Origin: Octopus vulgaris
Taxonomy: Eukaryota
Reading direction: 5' to 3'
Assembly: GCA_951406725.2 (NCBI GenBank)
Contig: OX597824.1
Coordinates: forward strand, 95,294,001 to 95,358,000
Length of the DNA: 64,000 nucleotides
The notes beneath the pieces are model-generated. The model made no database searches. It had not been told where the DNA came from and was given only the letters and a program-made list of their open reading frames with translations. A program made the position numbers and the translations under genes. The stretch's first letter is position 1. Every line of letters starts with the position of its first letter. Below are positions 3,638 through 60,096 of this stretch, in pieces.

Positions 3638-4089
3638 ATGGCTGACGGTGATGGGAACGTCTGTGGCTGTTGCACGGACCTGTCTCTGGTTTACGAATGC
3701 CTCAGAGAAGATGTTTTTGCCGATTTCGTGCGTTGGTCTGTGGCTGGCTGTTGATAAACCCCTGCGACTGTCTGACAGCCTCATGACCCCTACAACTCTC
3801 CTTCCTCGCTGATTGAAAGAGGAAATGAACCGCTGTCAATGTAATTATTAAAGCCTGAAATTGCCGAAATATTCACCTAATCTCTCAGCTCGAATATTAT
3901 GAACTGGAATTAACCTGCTACTTTATATTAGACACCAAATCGAAATCCGAGAAGTGCTCGTTGCTACATCCCCACCTTAATTTTCACATCAGACTGTCTT
4001 TTTTTTCTATATACAAAGTCCTTTTTTTTTACCATCTCGTGGTGGAACTGTTACTGAACCACGGCCAGGAATACCGCAATCTAAACTTG
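3600..4089 (+). other. Putative non-coding first exon of BTBD7 (5' end approximate)
   Basis: Unique, relatively CpG-containing sequence directly upstream of COX8 on the opposite strand. YY1-like AAAATGGCTG at 3635-3644; strong donor TTG|GTAAGT at 4089/4090. The link to BTBD7 is inferred because no other plus-strand coding exon was seen before 52645. Confidence 0.55.
3638..3754 (+). other. Candidate uORF/micropeptide, 38 aa, MADGDGNVCGCCTDLSLVYECLREDVFADFVRWSVAGC
   Basis: AAAATGG context; open frame to TGA at 3752-3754, inside the putative first exon. Confidence 0.35.
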
Positions 4090-6842: not shown

Positions 6843-6968
6843 CTCCCACATTATATATATATATATATACATACATATATATATATATATATCCCCTCCC
6901 CCCCACATTATATATATATATATATACCCATATCCCATCCCACATGATATGTATATATATATATATAT
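6791..6968. repeat. (TA)n tract with three repeated CCC(T/A)CCCACAT units
   Basis: Directly visible. Confidence 0.85.
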
Positions 6969-7181
6969 TTCGTTTTGGGATTTGGTTTGCAAGATTCTTT
7001 ATATGAGTTGGTGTGTTGAAGCATATTCTGTTGTGTCTGGGGAGAGTCATTTTCTTTTTGTGCCTTATTATTTAACACACACACTGGTTAAATTTCTTAA
7101 AATAAGAAAAAAAAGTGGAAATTTTACCGGTGAGTGTGTTAAATTATAAGGCACAAAAAAAAACTCTCCCCAGACACAGCA

Positions 7182-7182
<1 letters not shown>
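6969..7182. mobile_element. Interspersed repeat with an inverted terminal duplication (Penelope-like terminus or fold-back MITE)
   Basis: 7028-7096 and about 7118-7182 are about 65-bp inverted copies (CTGTTGTGTCTGGGGAGAG.../...CTCTCCCCAGACACAGCAG). The same sequence recurs singly at 27643-27768; flanked by TA tracts. Confidence 0.6.
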
Positions 7183-7228
<46 letters not shown>

Positions 7229-11672: not shown

Positions 11673-12583
11673 CAAGGTGGTATCAAAAAGTTCCAGGACT
11701 AGTTACGTTTAATAAAAAATAGCTTATTTACCTGAGTTTTAACATCATCTCCTTCGAAATAGTCACCTTGCACAGCAATGCACCAGTCCCAGCATTTCCT
11801 GCCACTTTTGGAATCTGGCCTGCAAGTCATTTTCCATAAGCAAGTTGAGGACCGTCTGTGATTTGCTCTGGATCTCGACAATGGTGTTAAAATGGTGACC
11901 TTTGAGCTGCCTTTTCATCTTGGGGAAGAGATGGAAGTCTGCAGGTGCTAAATCTGGCAAACAGGGCAGGTGTGGAAACGATACCTTTTTGGCAAGAGAC
12001 TCACGAGTGAGGAGAGCTCGGTGACAGGGTGCATTGTTGTCGGGAAGAATCCAATTCTGTGCGCTTCACAGATCTGGTTGCTTTCACCAGATGTCCCCCC
12101 TCAAACGCTTCAAAACATCACAGTAGAACTCTTGATTGACGGTCTGGCCCTGGGGGGGGGATGAATTCTCAATGCACAATACCACATTTCTGGAGGGGAC
12201 GCTTATGGCAGGTCTTCCAGATTGCTCATTGGCTTCCAAGGTCTTTCTTCCACTTTTGGCGTGCTCGTGCCATCCAAAACATTGTGTATGGTCCATTGCC
12301 TCATTGCCATAAGCTTACCAAAGCATGCTCAATGTCTCTGTAGCAGATTTCCTAAATTTCACGTTGGCTCTTTGTTCCTGTCCATGACAAAATTGTTGAC
12401 TACAGCATACACATGATCTCAAAAACACAAATTTCACAACTTGCGAAGTAAACACAACGATGTCACTCGGTATATTACCTCATTAAGGTCACTCCTAGCT
12501 CTCACTGCACATGCAACCTTGTGTGTGCTGCCATCTGTTGGCATGCTACGAAACTAGTCCAGGAACTTCTTGATACCACCTCG
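11673..12583 (-). mobile_element. Mariner DNA transposon relic, internally deleted, transposase pseudogene
   Basis: About 32-bp TIRs C(A/G)AGGTGGTATCAA(A/G)AAGTTCC(A/T)GGACTAGTT, TA TSD. Minus-strand fragments include PDLAPADFHLFPKMKRQLKG (YSPDLAPxD motif) and PPQGQTVNQEFYCDVLKRLR. Confidence 0.93.
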
Positions 12584-17511: not shown

Positions 17512-17611
17512 AATAAAATGAAGTAGCATGAAACGATCATACCAAATTACCGCAGATATACTTGTTGCTTATTTTGATTATATATATATATATCACACTC
17601 TGAAACAAAAA

Positions 17612-17658
17612 GTGTCGCTGAAGAGGTCACAGACGTGTGATGAAATATTTCCAGACAA
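17612..17658 (+). ncRNA. Degenerate minimal type I hammerhead ribozyme-like motif (Penelope-like terminus)
   Basis: TGTCG-CTGAAGA-G-GTCACA-GACG-TGTGAT-GAAA-TATT-TC-C(A)GACA: canonical CUGANGA and GAAA boxes, 6-bp stem II, bulged stem I. Confidence 0.5.
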
Positions 17659-17978
17659 TGGACAGACATTAAAATAATAAAATTACAACAATAAATGATT
17701 GAAGAAAAAAAGAAATATAGTGTGTGTGTGTGTATTTATTTGGCAAAAAAAAAAAATAATGATGAATGAAAAGACCATCCCGAAGTACAACAAAATATAT
17801 ATATATTATAGATAAGCACAAACGGAATAAACTGAAAATATGAAGAGGATCTGGCAACATTCTGCATGTGTGTGTGTGTTTTCCATTTGTTTTGTTTGTG
17901 TTTATAAGATACTGTGTTTTCGGAACATACTATTTAATGAAAGCCACTTATTTTGTTAACATGCTGTGAATTTATATA

Positions 17979-27290: not shown

Positions 27291-27642
27291 GACAGAACTC
27301 TCCATTACAGCCTTCAACTCACAAATTATTCCGATGAAATCCTTTCTCAGTTTGACTTTTATCTGTAAAAGGATTATTTTTTAAGACATAATCTCTATAA
27401 GTCTTCTTCTACCATTTGGTAATCAGTAGCTTACTAGACATCAGATTAAAATACAATTTCAACCAGTTAGCTTTTAATTTTATATCATTAATATTCTTCA
27501 AACATTTGATACTAAGTATTTTTAACTACTACCCTTATCTACATCCACACATTTCAATTAAAATTAGTGAATATAAAGTAATAATAAAATTGATATACAC
27601 ATACATATGTATATCACCATTTTATTTATATATATGTGTATG

Positions 27643-27768
27643 TACTGTTGTGTCTGGGGAGAGTTATTTTCTTTTTGTGCCTTATAATTTAACACACTTA
27701 CTGGTAAAATTTCCACTTATTTCTTATTTTTATTTTCCTAATTTTTTTTGCGTCTTGCAACCTTTTCA
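27643..27768 (-). mobile_element. Penelope-like terminal repeat fragment (same family as 6969-7182)
   Basis: Near-identical to 7028-7096; ends in a decayed hammerhead-like core on the minus strand; flanked by TA/CA tracts. Confidence 0.55.
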
Positions 27769-29789: not shown

Positions 29790-30018
29790 CAGTTACACAG
29801 ACTAGTTGGTACTTTGCACAGTACAGGAAGTTTTGTCAGTGAACAGGTCGTAGTCTCAAAGCGAAGAAAATATTTTGACAAATTAAATTTAAATGTTGAA
29901 GTGAATCTAACGGTTTTTGTGTGTTTCTTAAATGGCTTACAAACACCTTCCACACTGCAATTGTTTTCGTTCCAGCACATGATCTCAGATCAAGTTACTT
30001 GCTATGCAAGTACATCTC
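29790..30018 (+). mobile_element. Interspersed repeat (Penelope-like terminus) carrying a variant hammerhead motif
   Basis: 29894-29961 is homologous in reverse orientation to 60029-60096; contains the motif at 29832-29882. Confidence 0.55.
29832..29882 (+). ncRNA. Minimal type I hammerhead-like motif with a G3-C8 swapped core
   Basis: TTTGTCA-GTGAACA-G-GTCGT-loop-GCGAA-GAA-AATATT-T-TGACAAA: perfect 7-bp stem I, palindromic stem III AATATT, one mismatch at the base of stem II. Confidence 0.55.
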
Positions 30019-30106
30019 CAGAAATAATAAGCTTGTATCATATATACTAATTTACAGGTTTCTATATTTCATTTAATTATTTAAATAAATTTAATATTGT
30101 TTTTTT

Positions 30107-30320
30107 GATGCCAGTACCGCCTGGTTAGCCCCTGTGCTAGAGGCACATAAAAAGCACCCACTACATTCTGAGTGGTTGGCGTTAGGAAGGGCATCCAGCT
30201 GTAGAAACTTTGTCATCAGATTGGAGCCTGGTGCAGCCTACAGGCTTGCCAGTCCCCAGTCAAACCGTCCAACCCATGCCAGCATGGAAAGTGGACGTTA
30301 AACGATGATGATGATGATGA
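30107..30320 (+). mobile_element. SINE family C
   Basis: GGTTGGCGTTAGGAAGGGCATCCAGCTGTAGAAAC; (GAT)n tail. Confidence 0.85.
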
Positions 30321-31195
30321 TAATTAACGATCATATTAGCACATTTATAAGGTACCCATTGATACTGAAAATGTTAAGTAGAAGACACTTGCCCAAAGTT
30401 GCCAGACAGTAGAACTGAACCTGAAACCACCTGGTTAGGAAATGAGCTTCTTAACCACACAGCCATCCCTGTGCATCTGTTGATGCTGATTTGTAATGGC
30501 CCATCACATGCCGAAACATCAGCATTTCAGTATGTTAGTGTTAGCATATTTAATGTGTGACTCATTAAAAAACTAATTTAAAATAAATATGCAGTTGAGG
30601 AATAAACAATTTTAGTCAGTGTTTCATATTATTTTAATTCTTGCAGCAAGCACAGGAGACAACTGCAGACACATTTTGATTTCAGTCAGAACCACATAGG
30701 CAAAAACATAGCCTTCGCTGTACTTGCTGAAAAACTGTTGAAATAATCACTAAGTTAAAGTGCAAAATTTTGCAAAATTCTACATTGGATGGTGTGAGGC
30801 CAGCATTTGAGGCACTCATCAAATTCTCTATCTTAGACTCTCATAGCACATCTCAGTTCATAGTACAAGAATATTTCCTTACTCAGCGAGAACACATACA
30901 CATTCAGAGATATTTATTGGAGGCATTTCATATGAAACTATTTTTGCAGTTTATCTGATAAAATAATTTGCATGTTACTGGGGAGCAGTGTTCAGGTTTA
31001 TTTTCTTGGTGGGGGTTAGATTTTATATTTAGAAAGTATTTGACATATTATTTCTTGTCCTTTTTTGTTTTTTGTAATTTTTCTTCAAATTTAATTTATA
31101 ATTAAAATACATGGCATAGCTTTATCAAAAATTCGGCTGACGTCATAAAAAAAAATATCTTCATATGTAATCTGTCTCATGAGATCATAGTTTTA

Positions 31196-52534: not shown

Positions 52535-52656
52535 TATATATAAATTTATGCTTTGTCTTTTGTTTTTTTTTGAAATTAAAAGTTTTGGTTGTTAACATTT
52601 ATATTTCTATTATTCATAATACCTTTTTTTTTTTTCATTTTCAGAAATCCCTTGCT

Positions 52657-52674
52657 ATGGAACTGAAAAGGTGA
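52657..52674 (+). other. Short uORF (MELKR*) immediately upstream of the BTBD7 start codon
   Basis: GCT ATG GAA CTG AAA AGG TGA; the stop ends 2 nt before the main ATG at 52677, in the same exon. Confidence 0.6.
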
Positions 52675-52676
52675 TC

Positions 52677-53805
52677 ATGGGTGCCAATGTTTCAGCCGAT
52701 CGATTGCAGCCATCTTCTCGATCCTCCACATTGACTCGCATGTCCCATGGATATGTGATCAATGAGGGAGATGTGGTGGCACGAGAGAAGAAAAAGAAAG
52801 CGTCCAAGTTTGCCACACTAAGGAAAAAGTTGATCAGAGTCCGGCGCCACAGTCGAGCAGTTGATTACTCCAAAGCTTTGCGGGAATTAACTTGCAGCTG
52901 GTCTATTCGGGATCTCAGCTGCTTGGTAGAGGAATATGAAGCGGCTGCTATTCTTAAGGAACTTGCCATTGCTGCAAACTTGGCCCGACCGTTGGCCAAC
53001 TCCATTCGTCAAGATCTCTCAAACCTTTTTGATTACAAATACTGTACGGACGTTGATTTGATTTATCGAGGGGCATGTTTTCCAGCTCATCGAGCCCTTC
53101 TTGTTGCCCGTAGTCCATTTTTCCATGATTTATTGAACCAATTCCAGGAATATGGAGCACAAGTACCGATCAAATTAAAAACTCCTGGGGTTGATGTCCC
53201 TCTATTCTCTGCTCTTTTACGATATCTATACACTGAAGAATTTATTCTTGAAGGTTCTCAGTTAGAGAATGATGAGATTATCATGCGGCTTACGGATGAG
53301 TTTGGAATGCCAAACCCTCTGGAGCAGGACTTGCGAATGATGTTGGACACTGGCAACTACAGTGATGCTACTTTGGTATTTACGACTGGTTCCGAAAGCC
53401 AGGAAAATTTAAGTTCCGAAGCTTCTAGTTCAGGAGATCATTCATCAAGAAAACACGAACTTAAATGCCATAAAGCAATTCTGGCTGCGCGATCTCCTTT
53501 CTTCCGTAACCTTCTGTTGCGGCGTGCGCGATCAGGTGAAGAGATCACTGAACGGACATTACAGACACCTACACGCATAGTGCTTGATGAATCGGTCATT
53601 CCAAGGAGGTATGCTCGTGTGTTATTGCATGCAATCTATATGGACTCGGTAGATTTATCTTTAATAGTGCGTGGAAGTACCAGCACGTGTAGTCTTAGTG
53701 AAGTGCAAGCTATGGTAGCAGGAAGAGGGCATATCACTCATGCTGATGAAGCTATGGAAATTTACCAAATCGGACAGTTTTTGGATTTTCCTATTCTTTC
53801 ACAAG
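52677..53805 (+). CDS. BTBD7: BTB/POZ domain-containing protein 7, first coding exon (two BTB domains); gene continues beyond the window
   Basis: MGANVS start; KKKASKFATLRKKLI, YKYCTDVDLIY..CFPAHRA, HKAILAARSPFFRNLL, GEEITERTLQTPTRIVLDESVIP and SLSEVQAMVAG match BTBD7. Polypyrimidine acceptor TTTTCAG ends at 52644 (exon starts 52645); phase-1 donor CAAG|GTAATT at 53805/53806. Confidence 0.96.
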
Positions 53806-53986
53806 GTAATTCACAGACATTTGCTGTTTTTGTAATTAATTCCTCGAGTTCCTTTTGCATTCTTTTACTTTGTTAGACATGTTTTCTATTTGTAACCATG
53901 GATTTCATGATTCAACAGCATCCCATTTTAAGATAAAATAGCAAGAGCATGCCTCTAAAACCTCTTCCTAAAGGTGATATTTATAT

Positions 53987-58748: not shown

Positions 58749-60096
58749 TCCTCAGTAAAGAAATTAGGATATGATGTTACTGCAGCCTGGCTCTGTTCAA
58801 AAACCAGACATTCTCGGTTATCTTTGCCTGGAAACAGTTTATTAGCTTTCATTGTGAACCACTTTATCAGGTTCATCAATAAATAGATTCAACAGAAGAA
58901 TTGTTGTTTGAACATGGTTTATAGGTTCCTGTCTTGCAACAATCATCCATCCATAACCTTAGAGTGCAGCCTGACCGATAACTAGTATTGATTATAAATT
59001 GATGGAAAAGAATTTGGTAAGGCACAGTTATTTTTCTGTTTTAACAGTTGTGTCTGTTAAAATGTTGCTTTGTAGTATTAGTAATAGTGATGGTGGATTT
59101 CTTTCATTTGTGAAAATGTAATTAGCTCATAAAACTTGCCCTTCTATTGATCTATTCTTTTATTTTGGAGCATTTCAAAAAAATAAATAAATAAAAAATA
59201 TCTATAAAAAAAAACAAAAAAAAATTATTATTTCCCACTGGAAATAGATTAACAAGTACCGATTTGGCTTGATCTGAATCATTACTGACCTCTCCTATCT
59301 TGCTATCAGCCGCCTTTTCTCTTCGACCGTCAGAGTAAAAGTTGAACTACAACTATAGTTTCTCAATAAAGAATAGTCCTATCAATAACAGTTGCCATTA
59401 CTGAACATTTACTATTTTTCCAGCATCATTGTTGCTTCTTTTTTCTCCTTTTATTGATAAAAATATTGACTACTTATCAGAAAATATTTAATCTCAACAA
59501 ACCATTTATTATTATTATTATTTCATTATCTATTTTATCTTAATTCGGAACATTCACATACTTGTTTTTAGGACATTTACTCAGACTGGGATATTTTAGA
59601 ATTGCTCAAATAGACAGTGCTATAATTTTTAATTAAAAGGTTATACCAACTGCATGACTAAATTAACGATTCCCTTTATATTGTAGTACTTGTATCTGCA
59701 CATGCAGCTACATTTACCCAGGGTGAGTTGAGCCATTGCCAACCAGTAAGTTCATGTTTGAAGCTTCACTGGGAATACAAGTTCACATGTATGTGGTCCA
59801 CATTCACATGCACACACAATTAGCAGTTCATCTTGCTGTTGATTATTGACCATTGCAGAGGATTCACTGACCGAATCACTGCCGATTATAGGAGGAGATG
59901 TAGCCAGGGTTTGAAGCAAGTTCTAGAGACCTACTTTGACAAAAGCAAAGGGGTATCCCACTCCCCCAATGGTCTTCAAGCATGATGGACACCAACATAG
60001 AATTTCTGAGGGACAGTTCTCTTTAACCAATTGCAGCATGAGAGGTGATTATAACCCATTTAAAAAGACACAAAAACCATTAGATTCACTTCAACA

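Follow-up and report, generated by a model that had tools for sequence, protein, structure and literature searches.

Minimal type I hammerhead ribozymes have been described in the pLTRs of metazoan Penelope-like elements (PLEs), where dimers cleave weakly and monomers do not cleave, and a natural family with a U3-A8 core pair is known from Schistosoma (Cervera and de la Pena 2014, PMC4209133). Natural core variants with covariation between positions 3 and 8 were reported by Perreault et al. (2011, PMC3088659). In the PAc hammerhead of the anole Poseidon element, the engineered double change C3G/G8C gave a partial rescue of activity; this hammerhead depended on the PLE protein, and insertion in vitro did not require the ribozyme (Frangieh et al. 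2024, PMC11167929). The role of hammerheads in PLEs is left unresolved by both PMC8557442 (Craig et al. 2021) and PMC11167929.

Anatomy of the motif and its host intron

The window is the whole stretch of Octopus vulgaris DNA that was analysed, 64,000 nucleotides in length. It contains a hammerhead-like motif of 51 nt on the + strand (29832-29882), for which the initial annotation had proposed a swapped G3-C8 pair in the catalytic core. All the elements that it described are present base for base at their positions, including the broken basal pair of stem II, which is G-A. The features are as follows.

4090-52644, + strand: host intron (~48.5 kb) of a BTB-domain (BTBD7-like) gene, from spliced contigs
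29819-30019, + strand: short Penelope-like insertion (~200 bp), consisting of the 3′ portion of the pLTR and the tail, from repeat alignment; 5′ edge approximate
29832-29838, + strand: stem I, 5′ strand, 7 bp with 29876-29882
29839-29845, + strand: core box GTGAACA (G3-U4-G5-A6-N7-C8-A9), with the swapped pair G3 at 29839 and C8 at 29844
29846, + strand: extra G (9b), read from the sequence
29847-29851 with 29861-29865, + strand: stem II and the loop between its strands; basal pair G-A, broken
29866-29869, + strand: GAAA including G12-A13-A14, read from the sequence
29869-29874, + strand: palindromic helix III AATATT, read from the sequence
29875, + strand: T17 (U17), with the predicted cut just 3′ of it
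29876-29882, + strand: stem I, 3′ strand, partner of 29832-29838
29932-30019, + strand: first ~29 codons of the reverse transcriptase (RT)-endonuclease ORF, 83% identical to the N-terminus of L099, with a stop at 29980

The bases that mark a minimal type I hammerhead (U4, G5, A6, A9, G12, A13 and A14, with A15.1-U16.1 and H17) are all present. The canonical C3-G8 identity is absent, and G3-C8 stands in its place. Placed by hammerhead numbering, the cut would fall after 29875. A descriptor composed once the motif was known, which allows any Watson-Crick 3-8 pair with stem I of at least 6 and stem II of at least 4 pairs, finds one site in the 64-kb window, the motif itself, and 0 in 40 shuffles. 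An Rfam search gave no hammerhead match, either at the gathering score or at E ≤ 10.

The copy in the window has lost the G10.1-C11.1 pair that is found in its family, since C11.1 is changed to A at 29865, and it has a G-U pair at 29851/29861. The predicted probability of the 10.1-11.1 pair is 0.99-1.0 in two intact family copies and 0.0 in the window copy, in line with the earlier suspicion that this copy may be inactive. Single-sequence folding of the window copy is no better than that of shuffles (z 0.07). In the minimum-energy structure that is predicted, G3 and U17 form a pair that lies off the pathway, and helix III has a predicted duplex energy of only -0.2 kcal/mol; taken together, these two predictions would indicate low activity.

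The exon ending at 4089, with a GT donor next to it, is joined to an exon at ~52645-53807 in contigs of all four runs examined (which are RNA by guess), and the latter exon, read on the + strand, contains the coding sequence of a BTB domain (Pfam 2e-22). The 48.5-kb intron thus bounded precedes the first long coding exon of the BTB gene; the start of the exon after 52645-53807 was not found in the window. The motif had been placed in sense orientation in BTBD7 pre-mRNA. The sense orientation within an intron of a BTB gene holds, whereas the gene name is unproven: a BTBD7 cluster ranks 9th at 0.87, and BTBD7 is a plausible name. The intronic position of the insertion looks incidental. Given the lost G10.1-C11.1 pair and the lack of a matching partner on the same strand, the window copy likely does not cut the host pre-mRNA, and it is probably inert and of no consequence for the host gene. 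That it has been co-opted for cutting or regulating the pre-mRNA of the BTB gene, as its sense orientation in the intron might invite one to propose, is highly improbable, because it is one of thousands of copies, its other changes are those of ordinary decay, the basal pair is lost and the + strand of the window holds no second hammerhead of the family.

The same window contains other repeats. A stub of a C3-G8 sister element with a recognisable canonical core lies in the same intron (17604-17753, + strand), and its helix III is mismatched to the palindrome of the G3-C8 family. U3-A8 sister elements are seen as a stub at 27621-27768 (- strand) and as a head-to-head pair at 6953-7210, truncated below the hammerhead. 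A second fragment of the G3-C8 family without hammerhead is at 60025-60096 (- strand). Abundant SINE-like repeats ending in (GAT)n occur at 30108-30333 and in its copies (families D7-D16), and these are probably octopus SINEs. A fragment at ~11766-12314 (- strand) appears mariner-like by eye and has no Pfam match.

The repeat family and its Penelope-like parent

The motif had been described as repeat-borne, and this is borne out. Searching the 2.8-Gb genome of the octopus itself yielded 2,203 candidates, of which 40 were scored and 29 other loci retrieved; the 29 match the window from ~29819 to 30025 at 93-96% identity. Position 3 is G in 29/29 of them and position 8 is C in 28/29. The prediction that the family should carry C at 29865 was right for 26 loci (T in 2, A in 1) and for about 85% of the contig depth in run X15. 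As had also been expected, the family consensus retains both stems, a stem I of 7 bp and a stem II of 5 bp closed by G10.1-C11.1. Relative to the family majority, the window copy has 8 differences in 29831-30019, one of which breaks the 10.1-11.1 pair; no target-site duplication is evident around it.

Genome-wide, a pattern with positions 3 and 8 left free has at least 5,627 exact matches, with 0 in the control. Among the first 100 matches listed, 92 are G3-C8 and 0 are C3-G8. A mismatched G3-G8 core is present in 8 of 100 listed copies of one loop variant. Such cores, seen at L209, L211, L220 and L033, could be a small propagated sub-lineage or a recurrent change; the four G8 loci, when aligned, have no clear common marker, so that a source element with a mismatched core may exist.

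The arrangement of the copies is not that of a retrozyme, with non-coding hammerhead units in head-to-tail tandem: the window copy stands alone, the retrieved copies are for the most part solitary or head-to-head, and what is repeated is the end part of a coding element, unlike the unit of a non-LTR retrozyme. At one locus (G000:C2:23579392-23579620), four head-to-tail units of 64 bp include the 5′ part of the element. L061, with two direct copies 3.4 kb apart, was considered as a full-length candidate and dropped, as it has no long frame.

Walking upstream of the copies leads to a Penelope-like element, the kind of parent that had been suggested. L097 has an open frame of 1,025 codons with YVDD and, at its C-terminus, a GIY-YIG domain (Pfam 25.4 bits, above the cut-off). 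The Pfam RT model has no match to this frame, and its homologs carry an RT label. L099 has the layout pLTR-ORF-pLTR and is inserted in (TA)n, and its ORF starts within the pLTR, at the ATG corresponding to window position 29932. The element therefore has the marks of an endonuclease-bearing (EN+) PLE, namely one ORF that combines RT with GIY-YIG at the C-terminus, pLTRs within which this ORF starts, inverted 5′ partner copies, which are common, and a tail. The tail, at the end of the 29932-30019 segment, is likely the internal start of reverse transcription, by analogy with the role drawn from PMC11167929. Among named proteins, the nearest one belongs to Octopus vulgaris (56%). The linker of the endonuclease is a short CX3CxxC like that of the Nematis rows in the supplement of PMC8557442, a likeness judged by eye.

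Pairs at positions 3 and 8 in subfamilies and sister families

An older subfamily with the same G3-C8 pair is represented by 75 matches (control 0). When position 8 was left free, C8 was found in 25/29, and 22 of those 25 are also in the G3 list. Downstream of the hammerhead, this subfamily is 73-78% (~75%) identical to the young family. It has C at N7 and a different loop II, and in its majority stem I has G-C in place of a U-A pair. Helix III is AAUU in the majority and is palindromic still, so that the palindromic helix III pointed out by the initial annotation (AAUAUU in the young family) extends to the older copies, with a duplex that is predicted to be very weak.

Two further large families have other pairs. 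The C3-G8 pattern has 2,756 matches against 122 in the control and the U3-A8 pattern 6,766 against 687; an A3-U8 family sought by the same loose pattern stayed at background (262 against 242). The main C3-G8 and U3-A8 families are homologous to the G3-C8 family, as their ORF N-termini align, and the sister endonuclease frames, which sit upstream of the hammerhead, are 37-48% identical. In an alignment of 37 copies, 31 of them distinct, 96.8% of stem II cells are paired and two pairs change on both sides; the copies fall into six groups, so these changes amount to few events. U4, G5, A6, A9, G12, A13, A14 and A15.1 are invariant over the six aligned groups, the sister groups having been selected on those very bases, while N7 and the loops vary.

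The 3-8 pair thus occurs as G-C, C-G and U-A in homologous families, which agrees with the covariation that had been anticipated; it reflects two or three events and is partly circular, since the sister patterns require a paired core. All large stem-bearing families that were seen have a Watson-Crick 3-8 pair. The mismatch controls are above background, with 2,414 against 1,446 for purine-purine and 1,062 against 819 for pyrimidine-pyrimidine combinations; C3-A8, A3-C8, G3-U8 and U3-G8 lie outside the scope of the search. The listed mismatch rows include decayed family copies and one repeat, which makes up ~31 of the first 100 purine-purine rows listed. This abundant repeat fits the loose hammerhead pattern with A3-G8, and by eye it has no stem II. 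Homologous families with different 3-8 pairs suggest, as far as can be judged from alignments, that selection acts on this pair.

It might be argued that the hammerhead is a decaying passenger, whose G3-C8 pair goes back to two neutral mutations in a master copy that happened to be amplified. The G3-G8 copies and the excess of mismatch patterns over controls would fit with that, as would the spread of Naiad elements without canonical hammerheads (PMC8557442). Against it, G3-C8, stems I and II and the palindromic helix III are kept over subfamilies ~25% apart in which N7 and loop II have changed, and the pair is Watson-Crick in every large stem-bearing family mentioned above. We therefore regard this explanation as improbable.

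In a 160-column endonuclease tree that takes in 14 of 81 homologs, the G3-C8 lineage (99/97) stands apart from a group of U3-A8 and C3-G8 elements (97/93). The root has no support, so the ancestral pair is not set by this tree; taking C3-G8 as ancestral is based on rows from other animals in the supplement of PMC4209133. A metagenome scan for outgroups gave one relative (L221), with no hammerhead in the DNA examined. We also considered selection for U17 as a way of escaping a G3-C17 trap (PMC3884650). The presence of C17 in two of the C3-G8 sisters would fit this idea, which is nevertheless weak because U17 is common in C3-G8 PLE hammerheads. Additional hammerhead families with an ACAUGU palindrome were seen at L122, L123, L140 and L147, one of them C3-G8 and one U3-A8; they cannot be aligned downstream to the clade of the G3-C8 family and its sisters.

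Copying, predicted cleavage and comparison with known systems

How do the short copies arise? A 22-mer over the upstream boundary has only 524 copies. In 100 short copies listed by a pattern that excludes long ones, ATGCAG is preceded by AG in 52, and the position ahead of this AG, occupied by C in the long pLTR, has 39 G, 9 C, 3 A and 1 T; among the 39 rows with the extra G, 7 may draw it from a fold-back arm and 3 belong to a single tandem locus. Upstream of the stub 5′ end, at a distance of ~30 nt (about -30), there is a TATA-like run. Such runs have been described for rotifer pLTRs (PMC3846280), and an internal promoter is known in Penelope (PMC2377424). The extra G at the 5′ end below the TATA-like box is likely, from its sequence context, the trace of a cap. 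The stub 5′ end was also considered as a splice acceptor (CTAAC...TTTCTCAG), and this was rejected: the 100 copies have no common upstream exon and only the G, which is why the cap is preferred.

According to this scheme, transcription would start at the A of AGATGC, ~30 nt below the TATA-like run, and on the resulting RNA G3 would be at +24, cleavage would follow +60, the ORF would begin at +117 and the tail would end at ~+204. Reverse transcription would begin inside the ORF, at the tail, and would often reach the capped end of an uncut RNA, giving stubs of ~200 bp. When 100 listed copies with an anchor below the cut are considered, the hammerhead's 3′ half is retained in 92, and 3 have their break no more than ~3 nt from the site, with no pile-up of ends at the predicted cut; the W in the anchoring pattern favours intact copies. 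With 92 of 100 keeping this half, the templates were mostly uncut.

What we propose on cutting is inferred, while the anatomy, copy numbers, pair states and host intron were observed directly. We consider it probable that the motif is a minimal type I hammerhead with a G3-C8 pair in the leader of a PLE, whose source elements likely cut slowly with the help of a second hammerhead or a protein, and that the window copy is likely an inactive stub. Cleavage after U17 would depend either on pairing between the AAUAUU palindromes of two hammerheads or on assistance by protein. It would remove the capped leader or trim tandem read-through RNA to unit length, and slow cutting would leave uncut RNA as the template for copying. 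Slow, dimer- or protein-aided cutting is proposed by analogy, because minimal PLE hammerheads are weak as dimers, the C3G/G8C change restores activity in part and the anole hammerhead is assisted by protein. A more specific form of this proposal, which we put forward tentatively and hold to be possible rather than probable, is that G3-C8 is a selected, slowed form within a natural C-G/U-A/G-C series of cutters gated by protein or by dimer formation; placed 60 nt behind the cap, it would set how much RNA stays capped and copyable and how much is clipped.

An alternative interpretation is that the fold persists for some function that involves no cutting, for instance to bind the element protein or to structure the leader close to the cap, with negligible catalysis. 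The descent of the copies from uncut RNA and the predicted G3-U17 pairing can be read in this way; hammerhead mutants had no effect on insertion in vitro and RNA-seq of the anole element had no ends at the cut (PMC11167929), and PMC8557442 calls the function of hammerheads in EN+ PLEs unclear. It is harder to see, however, why eight core bases should then be invariant in six groups (the sisters having been chosen on them) while N7 and the loops vary, and G3-C8 double mutants have partial activity. A purely non-cutting role thus appears unlikely to us, and a slow ribozyme is the reading that we retain.

The compensatory 3-8 swaps among sister elements constitute natural evidence of selection on the tertiary core, and these elements offer ready constructs for gauging how much cleavage an element needs. 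With the G3-C8 core fixed, descriptors based on CUGANGA and Rfam overlook families of thousands of copies; published ribozyme counts may be too low, and statements that an element has no hammerhead may be wrong. If the gated, slow G3-C8 cutter proves true, reversed cores would hide whole ribozyme families in other animals from standard searches.

Compared with the PLE hammerheads of PMC4209133, the octopus motif has the same type I layout with one extra base between 9 and 10.1, the G10.1-C11.1 pair, a palindromic helix III, GAAA, an NUH site and a location in the pLTR, and in both cases the copies are mostly single and truncated. It differs in the G3-C8 core pair, in the extra base, which is G where the consensus has H, in a stem I of 7 bp and in the three pair types among sister elements of one genome.

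The likeness to PAc (PMC11167929) extends to the same swapped pair, a hammerhead near the ORF start, copies that end ~90-120 nt into the ORF and uncut RNA as the insertion template. However, G3-C8 is a laboratory rescue mutant in PAc, whereas in the octopus it is natural and present in thousands of copies, and the linker of the octopus endonuclease contains a zinc-finger motif, which is absent from Poseidon. With EN+ PLEs of the Nematis/Neptune type in PMC8557442, the octopus element shares the C-terminal GIY-YIG, a CX3CxxC linker, CCHH, the pLTR, an inverted 5′ copy, a tail and (TA)n targets; the resemblance to Nematis is that of the short linker as seen by eye.

For the 3-8 pair, section 8 of PMC3088659 names only U3-A8, to which the octopus family adds G3-C8. 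In a literature search with incomplete coverage of hammerhead-variant papers and their supplements, G3-C8 was found as an engineered pair and not as a natural one, nor did we find a report of octopus PLE hammerheads. The kind of hammerhead carried by PLEs and the natural U3-A8 pair are known, and what appears to be new, within that coverage, is G3-C8 as a natural, fixed core.
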